A stretch of 64,000 bases of DNA from Alphaproteobacteria bacterium. GTDB lineage: Bacteria > Pseudomonadota > Alphaproteobacteria > Bin95. A model generated the notes under the pieces. The model saw only the letters and a list, made by a program, of their open reading frames with translations, did not search any database and was not told the origin of the DNA. Below, one piece after another: positions 22,819 to 34,063 of this stretch (position 1 is the stretch's first letter; the number at the start of each line of letters is the position of its first letter). The translations under genes and the position numbers were made by a program. The DNA is taken from contig OZ224045.1 in the NCBI GenBank assembly GCA_963665325.3, positions 1,600,001-1,664,000 on the forward strand, given 5' to 3'.

Positions 22819-25800
22819 TCAGAATCTGAACTGCATGGCGGCCGAGACCCTGCTTTCCGGGTCGCCGGTTTGCGGGACGCGCCGTTCGGCAGCGAGCTTC
22901 AGCACGGGGCCCGCCAGCAGCCCCAAATCGACTCCGAGCGCCAACTGGCGGCCATCCGTGCCGGCAAGGCGGAACGCGGCATGCGGTTCGAATAGTCCGC
23001 GGCGGGAGACGACGCGCCAGCCGGCCTTCAAATCCAGGGTGAACAGTGCCTTGCCGCCGCCGCGTTTCAACGCCTTGCGGGACCGAAACGGTTCGGACTC
23101 CCCGATCCGGCTGTCGGGCGCTCCGTATGCCCCGGCCAGCGACCATGACGGTCCGCCCCGGTTGGTGTCCGCCGGCTGCCGCACCGTGGCTGTCAGGCCG
23201 AATTCCCGATATTCGCGACCGGAACGCCAGACCAGTCCCCGTAACTGGATATCCGCGCGCCCGGACGATGCCGGCAGGGGCGATCCGACGCCGCTGGACA
23301 ACTCGAGGCCCAGGCCGCGCACGCCGTCCCCGCCGTCGCGGCGCAACGACAAGGACGAGTAGTAACCGGCTCCTTCTTCCTCCAGCGCAACCTCGATGCC
23401 GAGGCTCTGGCGGTCGGCGGAGGCGGAGAGGGAGCCGATAGCCGTTTGGGCGCTGCCCCTGGCTTCGAGCTGTGCGAAGCCCGCTTCGCCGGAGATGGAA
23501 AGCTCCAGGCCGCGAAATGCCGGCAGGGGGCCGCGGAAGCCGGCGGAGACGGTCGCCAGTTCGGCGTCCGCGGTCTCGACGCCCCGGCCGGCGGTCGTAT
23601 TCCGGATGGTTCCGCGCCCGCCGCCGAAGGTTATCCAGACCGTTTCTCCATCCTCGAAACGCCGTTGCAGATAGGGATGGACGCTGTCGAAGGTGGTTTC
23701 GACCGCTCCGGGCGCCGCGCCGGCGGCGTATTCCAACTCTCCCTCGCTGCGGGCCATCGCCGTGCCGAACAGCCATTTTTCGCCCCACCGCATGTCGGCG
23801 CCGAACCAGACCGACAGCATCCGCCCTCCGTAACGCGACTGCGGGCCAGCGGATCCCTCGAAACGCTTCAGGTCGCCCCGGTGCCAAAGCGACAATTGCG
23901 GGAAGCCTTCCTCTCCGGGCGGGCCGAGCGCGACCTGAAACGAACTGTCTCGCAGCAATTCCCGGCCGCTCATGCCCATGACCGTCCGGTTTGTCGCGCT
24001 ATCGTGCAGTGATTGCACCCGTTCTTTTCGAACGGGCGCAAATAGAGGAACCTCCCGCCCGGCGAGAACGAAACGCGTTGCAGCTGGGTCGGCGGCGAAC
24101 CGCGCCCCGATGACCGTGTGCGCGCCCGCCGCCACATGGCTTGCGAGGCCCGCTAGCACGGCCTTGACGGCCCTTCGCTCGGCCGGCGTCGCTTTCGCCT
24201 TCGGCGTTGCGGCGACGGGGTCCGAGCCGGGGCTGTAGTTCGGGTAGAGGCAGTCCTCGCTTATGCAGTAACGGACCCGGAATACATATTCGGCGTTGTC
24301 TTTCAATGCTGCCTCGACGTCGTTTTCCCAACCCCTTGCAACAACATGGCGGGTCGTTTCCCGAGTGCTTCCGGATATGTCTATCCATCGGTCCGGGGCC
24401 GTGTCAGCGCGCGATCTGGCGACATGCTGCCATTTGATGATCGCTGGATTTTTCGGATCATCCCATGTCAGCATGACCTGACCGTAGCCGGCATGAGCCT
24501 TGAGGCCCTTCGGTCTGGTTAAGCTAGGCAACGGGACAACCGTAATTCCTTCCGATTCGAGGCTATATCCACTGCTGTTTGCGGCTCTAATGCCGAAGGT
24601 GTGGGGCGTGCCGCCTTCAAGGCCGGGAATCGTATGGCCGGTCGTTCCGGCATGGCTGTCGGGAATGTCGACCCAGTCGCCGAATTCGCCTGTTGTCCGG
24701 TAACGATATTGCCAACGCGTGACGCTCGGGTCGCCTAAAGCTTTCCATTCCAGCGATACTTCGTTCACGCCCCACTCCGCCACGAGTCCCTCCGGCCTGG
24801 CCGGGACCGGCGGCAGCGTCGTGGCAACCTCGTCGGACTCGGGGCCCGTGGAGTAGGCATTCACGGCGCGGACCTTGAAGCCGTAGGACACGCCGATTTC
24901 CAAGCCCGTGACGGTGTAGCTGGTCGTCGCATGTCCGCTGTTCTGTATAGTCGTCCAATCATCTGTATAGTCTCTGCCTGACCTTCGCCGGTTGTATTGC
25001 CAGCCGGCAATTGCGGGGTCGCCCGGGTCGTTCCATTCGAGCAGCGCCTCTCCGCTGCCGGGCGTCGCTTTCAGGCCCGTCGGCTTGGCTGGAACGGCAA
25101 ACGGGGTTGCCGCCGCCTCGTCCGACTCAACTCCCTCGCCGCTACTGTTCGTTGCCCTTATGCGGAAATAGTGGGGAGTGCCGGCGGCGAGGCCGGTCAC
25201 CGTATGGCCGGCTGTATCCGCGCCGCTGTTCGCGATGTCTGTCCAGGAGCTGTAGCTGCCGCCCTCTGTCCTGTAGCTGTATTGCCAGCCGGCGATGGTG
25301 CTGTTGCCGGGATCGGTCCAGCTCAGCGAGACCTGCCCGTCGCCCGCGGTCGCGGCGAAGCCGGTCGGCTTGGCCGGGACCGCTGGCAGCGTCACGGCCG
25401 CCTCGTCTGACTCCGCGCCTGCGCCGCTGGCATTCACAGCTCGAAGCTTGAAGGCATAGGACGCGCCGGTTTCGAGGAGGGTGATTGTGTGGCTCGTCGT
25501 GGCGGCGCCGCTGCCGAGGATAAAGGTCCAGTCCGCCTCGAATTCCCCGCCTGCAGGCCGCCGGTTGTATTCCCAGCCGGTGATCGCGGTGTCGCTCGGG
25601 TCGTTCCAGGACAACACGACTTCCCCGGGGCCCGCTGTTGCGGTGAGACCCGTAGGCTTGGCCGGTACGGCGAGCGGGGTTGCTGTTTTCTCATCGGATG
25701 CCGCGCCGTTTCCGCTGGCGTTTACGGCGCGGACCTTGAAGGTATGATCGATGCCGTTGGTGAGCCCGGTGACGATGTGGGCGGTCGTGGTTGCCCCGCT

Positions 25801-27329
25801 GCCGTCAATATCGGTCCAGTCGCCGTAACCGCCCGTGGTCTTGTGGCTGTATTGCCAGCTGGCGATGGTGCTGTTGCCGGGGTCGGTCCAGCTCAGCGAG
25901 ACCTGTCCGTCGCCCGCAGTCGCGGCGAAGCCCATGGGCTTGGCCGGGACCGGTGGCAGCGTCACGGCCGCCTCGTCTGACTCCGCGCCTGCGCCGCTGG
26001 CATTCACAGCTCGAAGCTTGAAGGCGTAGGACGCGCCGATTTGGAGGAAGGTGATTGTGTGGCTCGTCGTGGCGGCGCCGCTGCCGAGGATAAAGGTCCA
26101 GTCCACCTCGAATTCCCCGCCTGCAGGCCGCCGGTTGTATTCCCAGCCGGTGATCGCAGCGTCGTTCGGGTCGTTCCAGGACAACACGACTTCCCCGGCG
26201 CCCGCTGTTGCGGTGAGACCCGTAGGCTTGGCCGGTACGGCGAGTGGCGTTGCGGTCTTCTCATCGGATGCCGCACCGCTTCCGCTGGTGTTTACGGCGC
26301 GGACCTTGAAGGTGTAGGCGGTTCCGTTGGTGAGCCCGGTGGCGGTGTGGGCGGTCGTGGTTGCCCCGCTGTCGGGAACGTCGGCCCAGTCGCCATAGCC
26401 GCCCGTGGTCTTGTAGCTGTATTGCCAGCTGGTGATGGTGCTGTTGCCGGGATCGGTCCAGCTTAGTGAGACCTGCCCATCGCCAGCGGTCGCGGCGAAG
26501 CCCGTGGTCTTGGCCGGGACCGCTGGCAGCGTCACGGTCGTCTCGTCCGACTCCGCGCCAGCGCCGCTGGCATTCACAGCACGAAGCTTGAAGGCGTAGG
26601 ACGCGCCGATTTCGAGGAGGGTGATTGTGTGGCTCGTCGTGGCGGCGCCGCTGCCGAGAATGAAGGTCCAATCCGCCTCGAACTCCCCGCCTGCAGGCCG
26701 CCGGTTGTATTCCCAGCCGGTGATCGCGGCGTCGTTCGGATCGTTCCAGGACAGCACGACTTCCCCGGCGCCCGCTGCAGCGGTGAGACCCGTGGGCTTG
26801 GCCGGTACGGCGAGTGGCGTTGCGGTCTTCTCATCGGATGCCGCACCGCTTCCGCTGGTGTTTACGGCGCGGACCTTGAAGGTGTAGGCGGTTCCGTTGG
26901 TGAGCCCGGTGGCGGTGTGGGCGGTCGTGGTTGCCCCGCTGTCGGGAACGTCGGCCCAGTCGCCATAGCCGCCCGTGGTCTTGTAGCTGTATTGCCAGCT
27001 GGTGATGGTGCTGTTGCCGGGGTCGGTCCAGCTGAGCGAGACCTGCCCGTCGCCTGCTGCGGCGGTGAAGCCTGTCGGCTTGGCCGGTACGGCGAGCGGG
27101 GTTGCTGTTTTCTCGTCGGATGCCGCACCGCTTCCGCTGGCGTTTACGGCGCGGACCTTGAAGGTGTGAGCGGTGCCGTTGGTGAGCCCGGTGACGATGT
27201 GGGCGGTCGTGGTCGCAGTGCTGTCGGGAACGTCGGTCCAGTCGCCATAGCTGCCTGTTGTCTTGTAGCTGTATTGCCAGCCGGAGACGGTGCTGTCGCC
27301 GAGGTCGGTCCAGCTGAGCGAGACCTGCC
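22819..27329 (-). pseudogene. Fibronectin type III repeat outer-membrane/autotransporter-like protein, 5'-truncated by IS21
   Basis: About 10 FN3 domains (PAKPTG...V.LSW...WQY...GL..G..Y.FKVRAVN), C-terminal beta-barrel-like region ending AAMQFRF. The frame runs to the IS21 left end with no start codon or signal peptide. Confidence 0.8.
25270..27329 (-). repeat. Tandem coding repeats of about 570 bp (FN3 pairs) and 282 bp (single FN3)
   Basis: Near-identical blocks recur every 570 nt (ACTCCGCGCC at about 25410, 25980, 26550); CAGCTGAGCGAGACCTGCC at 27029 and 27311. Confidence 0.9.
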
Positions 27330-27444: not shown

Positions 27445-28089
27445 ATGCTGGTTGTGGAGACGATAGCGCGGATCCGTCGGGATCATCTGGTGAAGGGCGT
27501 TCCGATCAAGAAGCTGGCGCGGGATTTGAGGGTTTCGAAGAACACGATACGCAAGGTGGTTCGGGGCGATACGACCTCGCACAGCTATGAGCGCAAGATC
27601 CAGCCGATGCCGAAGCTTGGGCCTTGGGTGGCAGAGCTTGAGCGCCAGCTGGAGGCCAACGAGAAGAAGAAGCGCCGGGATCGCCTGTCCCTGCTGCAGA
27701 TCCATGAGGACCTTGGCGAGCTGGGCTACAAGGGCGGCTATGACGCGGTCCGGCGCTACGCCAGGGCGTGGCGGCGCCGACGCCGTCTGTTATCGCCGTC
27801 GCAGGCCTATGTGCCGCTGATCTTCGATCCGGGCGAGGCCTACCAGTTCGACTGGAGCCACGAGTATGCGCGTCTGGCGGGAGCGACGACCAAGGTGAAG
27901 GCGGCGCACATGCGGCTGTGCCACAGCCGCATGTATCTGGTGCAGATCTTTCCCCGCGAGAGCCAGGAGATGGTCTTTGAGGCGCACGAGCGTGCCTTCC
28001 GCTTCTTCGGCGGGGTCTGCCGACGGGGCATCTACGACAACATGAAGACGGCGGTGAACACGATCTTCGTCGGCAAGGAGCGTGCCTAC
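27445..28089 (+). pseudogene. istA: IS21 transposase IstA, N-terminal half (interrupted)
   Basis: HTH (IKKLARDLRVSKNTIRK), YQFDWS, YDNMKTAV; stops at GKERAY at the insertion point. Confidence 0.92.
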
Positions 28090-28335
28090 TGAGTGTGCTC
28101 TCGGTATCTGATGGCGGGATGGTCACGTTGTTCGATGGTTTTCAGGCGTCGGGCCGGGCGTGACGGCGGGGGTGTCGGACGGCCGTCGGCGCGTCAAGCC
28201 GCTTCGCGGCTCCTGCGCTGCGCTCCGGCCCTTCGGGTGACCCGCCGCCGTCCCTCCGACGGAGTGCATCCATGGCCGTAAGCAAGCTTCCGGCCACGGG
28301 CCGGCCGCTTTACGCAGTGTGACAATGGGAGCGGT

Positions 28336-28396
28336 GTTACCCGTTACCGTTACCCTCTCTCCCTAGGGGTTCGAGGCGGTAACGGTTTTCGGTAAC
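28336..28396. repeat. Iteron-like array around a palindrome (putative origin or protein-binding site)
   Basis: GTTACC x3 (28336, 28343, 28349), CCCTAGGG palindrome (28361-28368), inverted GGTAAC x2 (28378, 28391). Confidence 0.6.
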
Positions 28397-29361
28397 GTGT
28401 CCCTGCGGTCGTTGCCGTTGAGGGCGGCGAGGCGGTATCCGCCTTCGGATGCGCGCTCGACGCGTCCTTCGCGGACGAGCCTGTGCAGCGCCTCGGCGAC
28501 GGTTGCGGGCCGGGTTGCCGCGCGCTCGCGGATCCGGCGCTGGGAGAGCGGCGCGTCGGCGTCGGCGAGGGCCTGCAGGATGCGCCGTTCGGGGGTATCC
28601 GGCTCCGGCGCCTGGTCTTCCGGCGTCTCGCGCAACCGCAGGGCGGGGCGCTCGTCGTCGTCGGCGAGTTCGATCTCGAGGTCTTCGAGGCCAGGGGCGT
28701 CGCGATGCTCGACGGTCATGAGGATCTGGCGGTCTCGCCGGCGCAGGTACAGATTCGAATCGCCCCAGGCGTGAAGTTCGCTGCTGCCGCGCAGCGCCTG
28801 CCCGGGCCGGGAGCCGCCGCTCTTTCGTGCGTGATGGACGAGGAGGACGGCGGTTTCGAAGCGGCGCTGTATGTCGCGCAGGAAGCCCAGCATGGGGGCG
28901 ACCTCGGCGACGGTATTTTCGTCGACGCCGTGCAGGCGCACGAGGGGGTCGAGGACGACGAGGCGGGGTGAGACGCGCTCCACCGTCTCGACCAGGCGCT
29001 GGCGATCGGCGCGATGGTCGAGACGCAGCGTGGGCACGTCGATGACGGCGATGTCGAGGGTCTCGAACGCGGTGCCTGCCGCCTTTGCGATGCCCTGGAG
29101 GCGTGCGCGCACGATATGGCCGGCGTCCTCGGCGGCGAACAGCAGCACGGGGCCGCTTGCGGCGGGACGGAAGTGGCGCAGGCAGGGGACGCCGGCGGCG
29201 ACCGCGACGGCGATGTCGAGTGCGAGGAAGGATTTGCCGCACTTGGGCTCGCCGCCGACGATGCCGACGCCCTGCTCGGACCACAACGCCTCGACCATCC
29301 AGCGGCGCGCCTGGGGGCGCTCTTCGAGCTCCGCCGGCGCCCGTGTCGGGAAGCCCTTCAC
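28363..29361 (-). CDS. RecA/DnaB-fold ATPase (AAA_25 / RSF1010 RepA-like helicase) with C-terminal winged HTH
   Basis: Walker A GEPKCGKS, FAAED, Walker B VVLDP, LLVHHARK, LRGSSEL; C-terminal RILQAL...LSQRRIRE...TVAEALHRLVREGRV. GTG overlaps the upstream stop (GTGA). Confidence 0.82.
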   Translation of the reverse strand: MKGFPTRAPAELEERPQARRWMVEALWSEQGVGIVGGEPKCGKSFLALDIAVAVAAGVPCLRHFRPAASGPVLLFAAEDAGHIVRARLQGIAKAAGTAFETLDIAVIDVPTLRLDHRADRQRLVETVERVSPRLVVLDPLVRLHGVDENTVAEVAPMLGFLRDIQRRFETAVLLVHHARKSGGSRPGQALRGSSELHAWGDSNLYLRRRDRQILMTVEHRDAPGLEDLEIELADDDERPALRLRETPEDQAPEPDTPERRILQALADADAPLSQRRIRERAATRPATVAEALHRLVREGRVERASEGGYRLAALNGNDRRDTLPKTVTASNP

Positions 29362-30191
29362 CGCCGCGCCCTCCTCGGCTTGGCGGGTTCGCCCAGGGTC
29401 TCGATGAAGAGCTTCTCGTCGAGGACCTCGCGCTCCTTCTCGGCGGCGGCGGCGAGCAGGGCGTCGGCCATGACGGTGAGCGCCCGCGGGTTGCCGTCGG
29501 CATGGGCGACCAGGGTGTCCTTGAGGCCCGCGGTCATGAGGCCGGGATTGCCGGCCTGCTCGATCAGATGGTCGAGCAGGGCCGCGAGGTCGCCGGCCTC
29601 GGCCTTGGTCATGACCAGGCGCTGGCGGATGCGCGAGGCGATGGGCTGCAGATCGGGCTGGCGGAGCTTGTCGAGCAGGCGCGTGTCGCCGGCGAGGACG
29701 ACCGAGAGGATGGCGCGCGAGTCGAAGTCGGTCGAAGCCAGCAGGCGGATCTCGGAGAACACCGAGGGCAGCAGCTCCTGGGCCTCGTCGACGAGCACGA
29801 CGGGGCGCATGCGGGTATCGTCGACATGGGCGAGCCAGCGCTCGCGCAGGCTTTTGAAGCTGGCCCAGCGGTTGTTGTACATCAGGTCGACGCCGAACAT
29901 CTCGCCGATCTCGCGGTAGAAGTCGGACAGCCGGGAGGAGGGATGGGTGATGGCGGCGATGCTGAGCCCCTCGCAGCGGCCGAGACGGTCGGCGAGCAGG
30001 CGCAACGCCACACTCTTTCCGGCGCCGGGCTCGCCGGCGATCAAGGCGAAGCCGCCCTGGCGCACCAGGTGGCGCTCGATCCTGAGGCAGAAGCTGTCGA
30101 CGGCAGGCGTCGCCATGAGACTGTCGACCGGCAGGTCGGTGGCGAAGGGGTTCCACTTGAGCCCGTAGAAGGTGAGCAGTTCCCGGTTCAT
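29358..30191 (-). CDS. ExeA/TnsC/MuB-like AAA+ transposition ATPase
   Basis: FYGLKWNPF, Walker A GEPGAGKS, Walker B VLVDEAQ, LAG, GNPR; ATGA overlap with the transposase. Confidence 0.88.
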   Translation of the reverse strand: MNRELLTFYGLKWNPFATDLPVDSLMATPAVDSFCLRIERHLVRQGGFALIAGEPGAGKSVALRLLADRLGRCEGLSIAAITHPSSRLSDFYREIGEMFGVDLMYNNRWASFKSLRERWLAHVDDTRMRPVVLVDEAQELLPSVFSEIRLLASTDFDSRAILSVVLAGDTRLLDKLRQPDLQPIASRIRQRLVMTKAEAGDLAALLDHLIEQAGNPGLMTAGLKDTLVAHADGNPRALTVMADALLAAAAEKEREVLDEKLFIETLGEPAKPRRARR

Positions 30192-31663
30192 GGCGCATCT
30201 CCCCGATCTTCGTCCTCGCCCGGACCGGGCGTCTTGTCATGGGGCAGCCAGGCCGGCGGCAGGCCGGTTGCGGCCTGGGCGTCGAGCATGCCCTTGAGCA
30301 GCGGCGGAAGTTCCCCCGTCCCCGCGCCGCCATTGCCATCGTTGCCGCCGGGGCCGGCGGGACGGCGCACGCCATCGGCGTTGCCGCGCTTGTCGAGGGG
30401 GTACAGCGTGCACAGGCGCTCGCCGCCTCGACCGTCGATCAGATCGACGCTGGCGAGGTTCCAGCGCGCGTAACGGATCCAGGCCTCGCGCAGGTGGCGC
30501 CACGGCTGTGGCACCTGGTAGCGGATGCCCTCGACCGAGACGGTGCCGTCCGAGCGCCTGAGCGTGCGCTTCCTGGTGATGCGGAAGGCCGCCTTGAGCT
30601 CGGCCGAGCCGGGGCAGGATCTCGACGCGTCGACGCTCCCGGCCAGGCGTTGATGCGGCGTCATGCCGAGCTCGCGGTGCTTGCGGCGGTGATAGTCCTG
30701 CTCCAGCCAGGCGATGGTGGCGTCGTTGAGCATCTTCAAGGTAAGCGCGTCGACGCCTTCGAGCTGAGCCATCAGGCGCGATTCGACCGTGCCCCAGAAC
30801 GACTCGATCTTGCCGTTCTGATGGGGGCTGTAAGCGAGCGTCGTGACCCCCGCGATGCCGAGCCGGTGCAACCCCTCCTCGACCTCGCCCGCGGTCATCG
30901 CCGCGCCGTTGTCGGTCAGCAGGGACCTCGGCAGACCGCGCTTCATGAAGGCCTGGCAAAGGCCGTGGACGAACACCTCGGCGGTCTCGGCGAGGTACCA
31001 CTGAAGGTGGCAGCCGAGGCGCGAGTGGTCGTCGAGGAAGCCGAGCAGGATCGGCGTCTTCCACTCGCCCGAGGCGGTCAGCACGCGACGCTTGGCGCTG
31101 TGCATGTCGGCGTGCCACAGGGCGTGAGAGCGCGAGACCTCGTAGCTCAATACCTCGCGGGCTTCGACCGCCGGCCTGGCCTCGCTCTCATGCCACTTGC
31201 GCCGGCGCTTGCGTACCAGCCCGCGAGCCCGCATCGCCCGGGTCAGCGTCGCGTAGGACGGTATCGGGCCGAGCTCGGGATCGGCCTCGACCCGCGCGGC
31301 CAGATTCTCGTGATGAAGCTGCGCCGACCACGACGGATGCGCCCGGTACTGCTCGTGCAGCGCCTCGATCAGCGTCGGCGACATCGCGCGCGGGCGCCCG
31401 GCATCGGCGCGCGGGCGCCGCTTGAGCGCCCCCACCGGATCGTTGTCCGCCGCCCGCGCCTGGTAGTACCAGCGCTCGATCGTGGACACCGCGAAGCGCA
31501 CCCGGCCCTTGCCGGACGGGTGATCCCACTCGCGTTCGGCAAGCCGCTCAAGCTCGGCGTGCAGCCGCCCCGCCGGCGGCGGCGAGGCCAGAAGCGGCCC
31601 GACCACCGCGAAGCGCAACCGCGCCCACCGGTCGCGACGCTCGCTCCCGTCGTTGCTGTTCAT
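30188..31663 (-). CDS. DDE transposase/integrase (rve core with Mu-like C-terminal domain)
   Basis: HTH STIERWYY, WHAD, FLDDHSR, LTDNG, NGKIESFW, YHRRKH..LG.TP, DGTVSVEG.RY.VP. Confidence 0.92.
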   Translation of the reverse strand: MNSNDGSERRDRWARLRFAVVGPLLASPPPAGRLHAELERLAEREWDHPSGKGRVRFAVSTIERWYYQARAADNDPVGALKRRPRADAGRPRAMSPTLIEALHEQYRAHPSWSAQLHHENLAARVEADPELGPIPSYATLTRAMRARGLVRKRRRKWHESEARPAVEAREVLSYEVSRSHALWHADMHSAKRRVLTASGEWKTPILLGFLDDHSRLGCHLQWYLAETAEVFVHGLCQAFMKRGLPRSLLTDNGAAMTAGEVEEGLHRLGIAGVTTLAYSPHQNGKIESFWGTVESRLMAQLEGVDALTLKMLNDATIAWLEQDYHRRKHRELGMTPHQRLAGSVDASRSCPGSAELKAAFRITRKRTLRRSDGTVSVEGIRYQVPQPWRHLREAWIRYARWNLASVDLIDGRGGERLCTLYPLDKRGNADGVRRPAGPGGNDGNGGAGTGELPPLLKGMLDAQAATGLPPAWLPHDKTPGPGEDEDRGDAP

Positions 31664-31711
31664 TCCGGCATCCCCCTCGCTGCTTCGTGGAGGTGCCGAT
31701 GATGCGGTGCC

Positions 31712-32326
31712 CTATCCGTGCATCATAGAAACGCTTTCTGCGGGCGAAGCCGGACCTGCGCCGAGCGCGCAAAAGCCGGTCCACGGCATCAGCCAGACCA
31801 GGCTCCGCAGCAGCCGCGAGCGGAAGCCACGGCCCCGCATGATGCGCAGCAGCCGGCGCAGCGGCGCCTCTTCGGGCGGCGCCGCCAGCTCGCCCCGTCT
31901 CGCCTGCCACTCCCGGGTCAGCGGGAAGGCTTCCAGCCACCAGCGCCGCCAGCGCTTCAGCGTCGAGGCCGGAACCCCGCACCGCCGCGCGATCGTCTGC
32001 AACCGCGCGCCGCCGGCCACAGCCAGCGCACTCACCACAAGGAACAGCGCCCCGACGTAAAAGCGCCTGCCGAAGAAACGCACCGACGGCGGCTTCACGC
32101 GGCGTCGGCACACCGAACAGCACAGGCTGAAGCGCCGAACGTCGTTCCGAAGATTCGCCGCCAGACCGTGCGGCTTGCGCGGGTAGCTCGCGCTGTGAAG
32201 CGCGCCGCCGCAGCGCGGGCAACCCGCCGCCCGGCACGCCTCCGCCTCGGCCGCGTCGACCTGCTTCAGAAAATCCCAAACCCGGGCGTTGGAGAGATTG
32301 GAGTGCCGGAACAGCTTGTGCGACAT
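31712..32326 (-). CDS. Zn-ribbon plus HTH accessory protein of the nested transposon (DUF6431-like)
   Basis: CPRC...CCSVC, HTH-like IARRCGVPASTLKRWRRWW; first gene of the transposase operon. Confidence 0.65.
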   Translation of the reverse strand: MSHKLFRHSNLSNARVWDFLKQVDAAEAEACRAAGCPRCGGALHSASYPRKPHGLAANLRNDVRRFSLCCSVCRRRVKPPSVRFFGRRFYVGALFLVVSALAVAGGARLQTIARRCGVPASTLKRWRRWWLEAFPLTREWQARRGELAAPPEEAPLRRLLRIMRGRGFRSRLLRSLVWLMPWTGFCALGAGPASPAESVSMMHG

Positions 32327-32478
32327 TGGGGCCGTCTCAGGTTGATGTCACTGTCACCGAGACAAGCCCTCCGGCGGCCTTCTTGCAAGATCGCCGGGGG
32401 GCACCCAATCCAAAACCTCGATTAATCCGAGCCGATCAGCCCCTGATCGCCGCTGAAAGCCTGCGCCCGCTCACCTAC

Positions 32479-33348
32479 AACCGCCGCTTCCAGGAGATGT
32501 GCTCGCACCATCTGGTGGAGCCAGTGGCGTGCACGCCAGGGGCGGGCTGGGAGAAGGGGCAGGTTGAGAAGCAGGTGGGAGACCTTCGCGGGCGTCTGTT
32601 CGCGCGCAGCCCGCGGGGCCGCTCCTACACCGAGATCAACGAGTGGCTGATGGATCGGTGCATCGAGGAGGCCAGGAAGCAGCCGCATCCGACGATCGAG
32701 GGCAAGACGGTGTGGCAGGTATTCGAGGAGGAGCGGCCCTTCCTGATGGCATACCGCGGTCCCTTCGACGGCTTCCATGCCAGCGAGGTGTCAGTCTCGA
32801 AGACCTGCCTGGTGCGCTTCGACAACAACCAGTACAGCGTCTCTGCCCGCGCGGTGGGACGGCCGGTGGACGTGCGGGCCTATGCCGAGCGGATCGTCAT
32901 CCGCCAGGACGGCGAGATCGTCGCCGAGCATCCCCGGAGCTTCGGGCGCGGTCGGTTCGTCTACGATCCGTGGCATTACGTGCCGATCCTGACGAGGAAG
33001 CCCGGCGCACTGAGGAACGGCGCACCCTTCAAGGACTGGCAGTTGCCCAACGCGCTGGGCCGCCTGCGAACCCGGCTCGCCGGCCACGACGACGGCGACC
33101 GGCAGTTCGTCAAGATCCTCGCGGCGGTGCTGGAGGACGGGCTGGAGGCGGTCGAGGCGGCCTGCGCCGAGGCGCTCGCCTGCGGCGCCTGCAGCGCCGA
33201 CGTCGTGCTCAACATCCTCGCCCGGCAGCGCCAGCCGGCACCGCCGGCAATCATCCCGACGCCCGAGGGCCTGAAGCTCCGCCACCAGCCGGTGGCCGAC
33301 TGTCAGCGCTACGACAGCCTGAGGGAGGCCGGTCATGGAGCGTCATGA
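32479..33348 (+). pseudogene. istA: IS21 transposase IstA, C-terminal half
   Basis: NRRF...CTPGAGWEKGQVE, VSKTCLVRFDNNQYSV, YDPWHY, KPGALRNGAPF. Confidence 0.92.
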
Positions 33349-34063
33349 TGTGCTGGAGATGATGACCCAGCTGAAGCTCGCAGGCATGCGAGCCGCCTAT
33401 GACGACATCCTCGCCGACGGGCTCAAGCGCCGTCATCCGGTGCAGCAGATCATCGGTACGCTGCTGCAGGTCGAGATCGCCGACAAGAGGGCACGCTCGA
33501 TCAAGTACCAGATGGCGTCCGCCAAGCTGCCCACGGCCAAGGAACTGGCCGACTTCGACTTCGCCGGCTCGCCGGTCAACGAGCCCCTGATCCAGGAGCT
33601 CGCCGGCGGCGGCTTCCTCGAGGGCCAGCGCAACATCGTCCTGGTCGGCGGCACCGGCACCGGCAAGACCCATCTCGCCGTCGCCGTCGCGCGCTCCTGC
33701 ATCCGCAAGGGCGCCCGTGGCCGCTGCTACAACGTCGTCGACCTGGTGAACCACCTCGAGGCCGAACTCCGTGCCGGGCGCCAGGGCCGCACCGCAGACC
33801 AGCTCGTCCGACGCGACTTCGTCATCCTCGACGAACTCGGCTACCTGCCCTTCGCCCAAGCCGGCGGACAGCTCCTCTTCCACCTCATGAGCCGGCTCTA
33901 CGAGCGAACCTCGATCGTCATCACCACCAACCTCGCCTTCGGCGAGTGGCCGTCCGTCTTCGGCGATCCCAAGATGACCACGGCGTTGCTCGATCGTCTC
34001 ACCCACCATTGCGAGATCATCGAGACCGGCAACGAGAGCTGGCGCTTCAAGAACCGCTCCTGA
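33335..34063 (+). CDS. istB: IS21 helper ATPase IstB
   Basis: [43 protein letters not shown]. Confidence 0.96.

Follow-up and report, generated by a model that had tools for sequence, protein, structure and literature searches.

To our knowledge, phage Mu is the only replicative or copy-out transposon for which it has been worked out in detail how a replication fork is acquired, namely by borrowing host restart proteins. Mu and the Tn7, Tn5053, and Tn552 transposons combine a DDE transposase having N-terminal helix-turn-helix (HTH) domains with a separate ATPase, and their asymmetric TG...CA ends contain several subterminal repeats, but we know of no system among them that encodes a replicative-type helicase. 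IS21 elements likewise encode a transposase and an ATPase and produce variable short target duplications. The closest described relative of the locus studied here is Tn6049, a 3.5 kb element present in 12 copies in C. metallidurans CH34 (PMC2864759) and having a 12-bp imperfect inverted repeat that begins with TG as well as 4-bp direct repeats (PMC4739549); the accessible portions of these two reports name a 'gspA' ATPase and give no mechanism (PMC2864759, PMC4739549). In the present work, we analyzed a transposon found in a stretch of 64,000 nucleotides (the window; positions 1,600,001 to 1,664,000 of contig OZ224045.1, assembly GCA_963665325.3) from an Alphaproteobacteria bacterium. Its first three genes correspond to those of Tn6049, while its fourth open reading frame (ORF4) is predicted to encode a replicative-type helicase fused to a winged helix. 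The position of a helicase gene next to the transposase genes suggests that the element brings part of its own copying machinery, and as described below, a large class of transposons carries ORF4 as a regular constituent under selection and not as cargo picked up by chance.

When compared by tblastn with Tn6049 on pMOL30, ORF1, the transposase (TnpA), and the ATPase of the element were 40%, 51%, and 52% identical to their counterparts, respectively, with the same gene order and strand. Tn6049 from CH34 and a copy on the Paraburkholderia plasmid pBPHYT01 (PsJN) are its nearest annotated relatives, and the identities to both range from 40-44% for ORF1, 50-51% for TnpA, and 52-53% for the ATPase, again in the same order. 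Tn6049, which is also found on the P. aeruginosa plasmid pHS87a, resembles the element in having short imperfect ends starting with TG and in being multi-copy, and the subterminal CCATCRA-type repeats and ...GCTCA tip of the element are shared with a helicase-less relative (L090). However, Tn6049 is 3.5 kb rather than 4384 bp in length, the fourth gene of both Tn6049 and its pBPHYT01 relative encodes only 71 amino acids (aa) without a Pfam match instead of a 332-aa helicase-winged helix protein, and Tn6049 has neither the hexamer array nor the 132-nt motif described below. Judging from these comparisons, the element is a distant variant within the named but little-studied Tn6049 family and not Tn6049 proper. 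The initial annotation of this locus had proposed a poorly characterized transposon class. The family of the backbone has already been named, and the literature searched contained nothing functional on Tn6049; neither the helicase-bearing form nor the array, the motif, or the primase variants were found in it (Table S5 of PMC3414803, which was outside of the search, might list relatives).

The likeness of the transposase and ATPase to MuA and MuB, which had also been suggested initially, was partly supported by PHROGs, in which TnpA matched phrog_310 ('transposase') at 2.4e-40 and the ATPase matched phrog_296 ('DNA transposition protein') at 1.4e-23. TnpA itself has no Mu-transpos_C match in Pfam, a domain that does occur in the transposase of a second backbone discussed below (L060), and MuB (8xvb) matched the ATPase at an E value of only 0.056 in a PDB sequence search. 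In addition to these similarities, the element has the same general arrangement as Mu, Tn7, Tn5053, and Tn552, namely a DDE transposase with N-terminal HTH domains, a separate ATPase, and asymmetric TG...CA ends with several subterminal repeats. It differs from them in that no TniQ, TnsA, or resolvase family was found by Pfam and NCBIfam among its four proteins, in agreement with the lack of TniQ and resolvase noted from the sequence, and in that its duplications span 4-6 bp instead of the fixed 5 bp of Mu. As a possible hidden TniQ, ORF1 yielded only a poor AlphaFold2 (AF2) model (pLDDT 62.6) with no PDB match by Foldseek at E ≤0.001, and it may still have a remote TniQ likeness. The best NCBIfam model for TnpA was that of IS481 (123.9 bits versus a cut-off of 224), with IS21 at 45.1 versus 160, and RefSeq labels the TnpA of Tn6049 an 'IS481 family transposase'. 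Besides scoring under the cut-off for the catalytic core, the element has four genes versus one for IS481, and although it shares a transposase, an ATPase, and variable short duplications with IS21, its ATPase is of the AAA_22 type and not IstB-like. We classify the backbone as a MuA/MuB-like module of the Tn6049 family that lies outside of Mu, Tn7, IS481, and IS21. The family was rare in an even sample of 400 genomes of the phylum, where a TnpA relative was present in only two and ORF4 relatives (39-43% identity) in three. One of the two TnpA-bearing genomes contained a Tn6049-like 3.5-kb contig, while the contig of the other was cut 114 nt past the ATPase.

The existence and borders of the transposon (Table 1) were confirmed in several ways. 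Once it is taken out, the two halves of the interrupted istA (215 and 289 aa) lie in one reading frame, as the initial annotation had claimed. The same genome, searched as five contigs of 5.58 Mb in total, also contains nine uninterrupted IS21-type copies that serve as empty sites, and the 300-nt flanks overlap by exactly 5 nt in each of them. Furthermore, in all four public runs examined, assembled contigs run straight from 28084 to 32474, leaving out 4389 bases, and five letters are shared at the joint. With 24 copies having identical ends in the genome, this is a real transposon whose four genes moved as one unit, and its predicted length, ends, and CCTAC duplication all stand. Its terminal inverted repeat is limited to 8 of 11 bases, and farther in, the similarity between the two ends does not exceed that of 70-mers drawn at random from the element; long terminal inverted repeats were looked for in the element and none were found. 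The ...GCTCA tip at the ORF4-side end is common to its relatives, and the CCATCRA-type repeats recur at this same end in relatives including the helicase-less L090. These repeats are presumed to be the binding sites of the transposase.

Table 1. Features of the transposon and its insertion site; positions are those of the window.
Feature	Position	Strand	Details
IS21-type istA, N-terminal part	27445-28089	+	interrupted gene, 215 codons
Target-site duplication, left copy (window orientation)	28085-28089		CCTAC
Whole transposon	28090-32473	genes on -	4384 bp; begins TG, ends CA
Terminal repeat, ORF4-side end	28090-28100		TGAGTGTGCTC; 8/11 bases match the other end
Subterminal direct repeats	28105-28138	-	two, CCATCRA-type, ~25 nt apart
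Conserved structured motif	28173-28304	-	132 nt; long hairpin and closed three-hairpin junction, G-N-A triloops
Inverted hexamer array	28336-28396		GTTACC at 28336, 28343, 28349; CCCTAGGG palindrome at 28361-28368; GGTAAC at 28378, 28391
ORF4	28363-29361	-	332 aa; RepA/DnaB-fold ATPase and C-terminal winged helix (predicted); Pfam AAA_25 at 4.6e-36 and HTH_IclR/MarR_2
AAA_22 ATPase	29358-30191	-	277 aa; MuB/GspA(ExeA)-like; Pfam AAA_22 at 5e-20
TnpA	30188-31663	-	491 aa; DDE transposase; Pfam rve, rve_3, HTH_32
ORF1	31712-32326	-	204 aa; Cys4 zinc ribbon and HTH; Pfam HTH_23 at 3.4e-6
Terminal repeat, ORF1-side end	32463-32473		...GCGCCCGCTCA
Target-site duplication, right copy	32474-32478		CCTAC
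IS21-type istA, C-terminal part	32479-33348	+	interrupted gene, 289 codons
istB-like gene	33335-34063		follows the interrupted istA

The stop and start codons overlap between TnpA and the ATPase (ATGA) and between the ATPase and ORF4 (GTGA), and a Shine-Dalgarno-like AGGAGG lies 8 nt ahead of the ORF4 GTG. Accordingly, ORF4 is translationally coupled to the ATPase gene. All 39 ORF1 sequences compared retain the cysteines C36, C39, C70, and C73. PADLOC contained no family for ORF4, TnpA, or ORF1 and only a P-loop stretch for the ATPase. In one sponge metatranscriptome run (X17), contigs were 90-99% like parts of all four genes, which may include DNA carry-over.

ORF4 had been read as a RecA/DnaB-fold ATPase with a winged helix, and sequence, modeling, and structural searches agree on this point. 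Its ATPase domain covers approximately residues 10-245 and its winged helix approximately residues 255-311. The sole solved sequence relative is RSF1010 RepA (1g8y; E 2.4e-8, ~20% identity). An AF2 model built from a 69-sequence alignment reached a pLDDT of 91.2, and Foldseek placed DnaB (4esv), RadA (8rxc), and RepA (1nlf/1g8y) on top with E values of 1e-11 to 1e-12, the target-normalized TM-score against RepA being 0.70-0.74. K43 of the Walker A motif, the catalytic glutamate E78, D138 of Walker B, R191, and R220 are invariant in all 69 ORF4 sequences, which are 36-86% identical, and the PHROG matches of ORF4 fall within the helicase parts of phage primase-helicases. According to this model, ORF4 is a RepA/DnaB-type RecA-fold ATPase that includes an arginine finger and is fused to a winged helix, and we infer that it forms a ring hexamer capable of ATP-driven unwinding. 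Relatives of ORF4 are abundant, as a full scan yielded 489 clusters (50% identity) at E ≤1e-30 and 7570 at E ≤1e-10, and where the source provides any name, it is only 'AAA family ATPase'. The RSF1010 replication set consists of the RepA helicase, iterons, hairpin priming sites, and the RepB' primase. Apart from RepA being the best solved match to ORF4 in both sequence and target-normalized fold, this set is reminiscent of the element in that the ORF4 helicase is accompanied by adjoining short repeats and hairpins, as well as by a primase gene in some lineages. In contrast to ORF4, RepA has no C-terminal winged helix; moreover, ORF4 resides in a transposon rather than a plasmid, there is no RepC-like initiator, and the primases of these elements are of the Toprim type and not RepB'-like.

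To assess how regularly ORF4 accompanies the transposition genes, loci were collected from two directions, with 80 genome loci found by TnpA (54-92% identity) and 80 metagenome loci found by ORF4 (51-81% identity). ORF4 followed the ATPase in 77 of the 80 TnpA-found loci; the other three consisted of two truncated copies and L090, an intact helicase-less element. Conversely, the ATPase was immediately upstream in 62 of the 64 ORF4-found loci having ≥900 nt of upstream sequence, and where enough upstream DNA was available, TnpA was present in 42/42 and ORF1 in 31/34. The TnpA proteins of these metagenome loci are only 45-56% identical to that of the element, making them as distant as Tn6049. 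Among ORF4 relatives at 39-43% identity, all three loci follow an AAA_22 ATPase (27-30% identical) and two have a DDE transposase (28-30% identical) upstream, while the third contig stops earlier. A second backbone, represented by L060 and L047, has a TnpA of 29% and an ATPase of 28% identity, a different terminal sequence, and a transposase with a Mu-transpos_C match, yet it carries ORF4 at 78% identity together with the 132-nt motif at 92%. The ratios of nonsynonymous to synonymous substitution rates (dN/dS) were similar for ORF4 (0.23-0.43) and TnpA (0.25-0.40). From these results, we conclude that ORF4 is integral to these elements, as initially proposed: close relatives rarely lack it.

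The elements occur in metagenome-assembled genomes (MAGs) labeled Alphaproteobacteria, Gemmatimonadota, Acidobacteriota, Chloroflexota, and Actinomycetota, although multi-copy repeats may be mis-binned, and element-bearing MAGs contain tens of copies per genome. In a quick tree of 65 TnpA rows, the helicase-less L009, L010, and L090 stand beside helicase-bearing rows at SH-aLRT values of 89-91, which is under the starred level; since 38 of the 65 rows came from the search made with ORF4, this tree cannot tell whether the helicase is ancestral. The fourth gene of these helicase-less elements (L009:3433-3648, L010:3718-3933, and L090 at ~2660-2870) encodes a ~70-aa protein that terminates in an acidic stretch and then F or PF. 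No Pfam match was obtained for it in L009, the example examined, and its function may correspond to that of the helicase cassette.

At the end of ORF4, we identified an inverted array of hexamers in which 2-3 direct copies of (G/C)TT(A/C/T)CC are followed by a center and then by 2-3 inverted copies. The center of the array in the element is the CCCTAGGG palindrome, which contains the ORF4 stop codon. Such an array was found after ORF4 in at least 56 of 86 distinct regions versus 0 of 1172 control windows. Among helicase-less relatives, it was present after the ATPase in 0/4, and by eye, a simple hairpin occupies the equivalent place. In the close clade, the start of the recognition helix varies with the fourth base of the hexamer, R-P occurring with GTTACC, R-N with GTTCCC, and R-A with GTTTCC. 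The array is therefore likely the cis site of ORF4, which would bind it through the winged helix. Viral initiator-helicases likewise unite a sequence-specific DNA-binding domain and a ring helicase in a single polypeptide, and their sites are short inverted repeats around a center. For SV40 large T antigen, papillomavirus E1, and phage P4 alpha, the analogy to ORF4 is functional only, as these are SF3 helicases, whereas ORF4 is predicted to be of the RecA-fold DnaB/RepA type. As a separate observation, the copy at C1:2290596-2297053 is interrupted by a 2074-bp insertion sequence (IS), itself present in ~12 copies in the genome, which lies exactly in the CCCTAGGG center of the hexamer array with a CTAG duplication.

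Between the array and the transposon end lies a conserved, apparently structured motif of 132 nt. Across 10 sequences, its 45 pairs were 97.3% paired, with seven pairs changed on both sides; none of 500 shuffles reached this, and slid controls were 23-48% paired. G-U pairs are formed only when the motif is read in the sense of the genes. Rfam returned no match at E ≤1 over positions 27900-32700. The motif travels with ORF4, as is evident from the L060 backbone, where it is 92% identical even though the transposon end differs. In L131, L151, L154, L160, and L176, ORF4 is instead followed by another conserved GC-rich noncoding sequence of ~120 nt with a strong terminal hairpin.

A further link to replication comes from the genes located beyond ORF4. 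A DUF3991+Toprim_2 gene lies between ORF4 and the element end in 26 loci from six element lineages, and a 27th locus (L075) has a weaker, partial match outside of the element. PADLOC applied to this fifth gene in L016 recognized only the Toprim stretch. In the class with ORF4 at 41-43% identity, a gene combining Zn_ribbon_DnaG (CHC2) with Toprim_2 overlaps the ORF4 end in L092, a homologue of this DnaG-type primase follows ORF4 in L093, and a third homologue is present on the contig L114, whose first bases already lie within ORF4. As the helicase is paired with a primase in two separate cases that differ in primase architecture, a function in DNA replication is favored over one in choosing targets.

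The transposon is also very active, and its mobility is beyond chance. Of the 24 copies, 21 are identical, two have a 1-nt deletion (which in one of them breaks TnpA), and one contains the 2074-bp IS described above. Target duplications measure 5 bp in 10 copies, 4 bp in eight, and 6 bp in two; two others have a 5-bp duplication with one mismatch, and another two have swapped flanks. Duplications of 4-6 bp indicate a variable stagger, unlike Mu or Tn7. Thus, the 5-bp duplication from which the initial annotation had tied the element to the Mu/Tn7 group is real at this copy, but it is not a fixed trait. The swapped flanks are reciprocal between the copies at C2:25283-29666 and C4:930514-934897, with left and right flanks pairing by 4 bp and 5 bp, which could have arisen from recombination between copies residing on two replicons, from an unresolved cointegrate, or from the way in which the assembly was joined. 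Together with the many identical copies whose donors were retained, this pair gives no more than a hint of replicative transposition. End-to-end element joints, as expected of circular or tandem forms, were absent among the assembled contigs of the four runs, although contigs cannot prove their absence. By eye, the insertion sites in the genome share no evident motif.

A fork-directed orientation of insertion was considered and dropped. While 18 of the 24 copies match the sign of the local GC skew, seven of them are located in a single 120-kb stretch of abnormal skew, and with element copies masked, the contigs of this genome show no clean two-arm GC skew. Among the flanks of 64 relative loci, 34 were negative and 30 positive, indicating no orientation bias. 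The 120-kb stretch, located at ~1.98-2.10 Mb of C1, has an unusually strong GC skew of 0.13-0.2 with its seven copies masked. Several other observations concern the distribution and surroundings of the element. Contigs of run X2 break exactly at 28090 and 32473, and their depth is ~104-115 inside the element versus 3-7 in the flanks. Near-identical element copies were detected in runs X8, X10, and X17, which are labeled sponge metagenome or metatranscriptome. In the window, a minus-strand ORF at 22819-26757 (1312 aa) with many ~90-aa repeats is located immediately upstream of the interrupted IS21 element.

How might these components work together? We propose that the ORF4 cassette is an accessory replication-initiation device that helps the element to be copied during replicative or copy-out transposition, a reading on which our own judgment is evenly divided. 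The MuA-like transposase, the MuB-like ATPase, and the zinc-ribbon/HTH protein would carry out the move itself, acting on the TG...CA tips and subterminal repeats and making cuts staggered by 4-6 bp. The winged helix of ORF4 would recognize the inverted hexamer array at its own stop codon and thereby place the ring helicase there. Loaded only a few hundred bases from the transposon end, the helicase could unwind the element, which would help the replisome to copy it, either at the strand-transfer intermediate, as in Mu-like replicative transposition, or in a copy-out step. Priming could be provided by the element-encoded Toprim primase in some lineages and elsewhere perhaps by the host, with the hairpin-rich 132-nt motif as its substrate. 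The cassette may raise the efficiency of transposition or its independence from the host, with less need of host restart proteins, without being essential. The many identical copies with donors retained, as well as the presence of the elements in MAGs of five phyla, would fit this reading. A broader version, according to which these elements constitute an undescribed large transposon class with a built-in origin, an initiator-helicase, and sometimes a primase, in other words a private primosome that provides its own fork during transposition, is offered only tentatively and leans towards the doubtful.

A number of findings weigh against a replication device of this kind. At least 30 of the 86 regions are under the array threshold, the match between recognition helix and hexamer tracks kinship and is therefore not independent evidence, the variable 4-6 bp duplications depart from the fixed 5 bp of Mu, and when folded as single-stranded DNA, the array of the element yields a hairpin that is no more than modest (z -1.9; 7/200 shuffles fold equally well). 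This modest folding is more in keeping with a binding site for a protein than with a structural hairpin. The 132-nt motif is confined to the close clade, as its covariance model matched, over 95 loci, L121 and L122 (both training rows) and weakly L140 (E 0.0016), and the primase genes are limited to some lineages. A further objection concerns dispensability. In the MAG G001, a whole-genome search gave 20 ORF4 matches, all of them partial, and all 7-8 copies (L075-L079, L084, L089) have ORF4 split near residue 160 by a ~3.7 kb insert with ~100-bp inverted repeats and three tyrosine recombinases, i.e. a RIT element (L075:8773-12493). Three identical 8083-bp composites are located at different sites in G001 with duplications of their own (GCGGC, GCCTT, GCCC), which implies that they transposed when the helicase had already been disrupted, barring the later loss of an intact helper. 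Tn6049, itself without a helicase, nevertheless reached 12 copies in CH34 (PMC2864759). Both the G001 composites and the helicase-less Tn6049 subgroup argue that ORF4 is an accessory and not a core catalytic part, and the core function assigned to it in the initial annotation was too strong. Separately, it should be noted that the RIT segment is present in both orientations among the G001 copies and hence also inverts. An IS66-family element with an 8-bp duplication (L049:8773-11448) is inserted at ORF4 codon ~156-160, the same spot as the RIT element, and L017 loses similarity at the same point of ORF4 (~8774), so this part of ORF4 may be a hot spot for unrelated mobile elements.

Other explanations of the cassette have to be weighed against these data. 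It could be a selfish, mini-replicon-like module that rides on transposons and either replicates excised or circular copies or over-replicates the element in place. Its self-contained nature, its movement without the transposon ends between backbones whose TnpA proteins are only 29% identical, its dispensability for transposition in G001, and a layout of helicase, iterons, hairpins, and primase resembling the RSF1010 set all speak for such a module. However, ORF4 at ≥51% identity occurs almost only behind a transposon ATPase (62/64), no ORF4 relative was found at E 1e-20 in the 72,556 plasmid records of PLSDB, and ORF4 is translationally coupled to the ATPase gene in an element lacking a separate initiator gene. 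Overall, we regard this explanation as unlikely. The initial annotation had left replication and target selection as alternatives, and of the two, replication is the better fit due to the primase pairing and the internal site of the cassette. As a target-selection or immunity factor, ORF4 would replace TniQ, TnsD, or TnsE and would mark DNA, such as forks or single strands, or, by way of the array, resident copies for the AAA_22 ATPase. That no TniQ-like protein was found, that ORF4 adjoins and is coupled to a MuB/TnsC-like ATPase, and that the array could mark 'self' are all compatible with this idea, but primase genes accompany the helicase in two groups of lineages, and the cassette occurs with ATPases that are only 28% identical. 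Neither an insertion motif nor a skew-related orientation is evident, as described above, and the nearest transposon copies are ~10 kb apart, which argues against strong target immunity. Taken together, these points make a role in targeting improbable.

Even less probable is that ORF4 is simply a passenger, for example a repair, anti-phage defense, or counter-defense gene having no role in the movement or copying of the element. Although it is dispensable in G001 and absent from Tn6049, it always has the same position and the same coupling, matches no PADLOC family, has its own cis array within the element, is under purifying selection equal to that of the transposase, and recurs in three deeply divergent backbones. 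Lastly, the winged helix and array could function solely as an autoregulatory or terminator device with a vestigial ATPase domain, since the stop codon of the operon's final gene falls within the array and helicase-less relatives appear by eye to have a simple hairpin there. We consider this very improbable given that the catalytic residues of the ATPase are all invariant among the 69 sequences and that the low dN/dS applies across the whole of ORF4.

Regardless of the exact role of the cassette, a whole branch of Mu-like transposons comes equipped with a helicase, a DNA site to match it, and in some cases a primase. The system is small, consisting of four or five genes and a 60-nt site, and nature has already supplied both a knock-out in the form of the RIT-split copies and a helicase-less sister in the form of Tn6049. 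If the cassette were to prove irrelevant to movement, it would still be an unusually faithful passenger in need of an explanation. If, on the other hand, it works as its parts suggest, these elements would be bacterial DDE transposons that supply their own primosome, for which we know of no earlier case. Under the broader and more doubtful version outlined above, replicative or copy-out transposition would be independent of host restart, which could explain how these elements spread through multiple phyla in environmental, sponge-associated communities.

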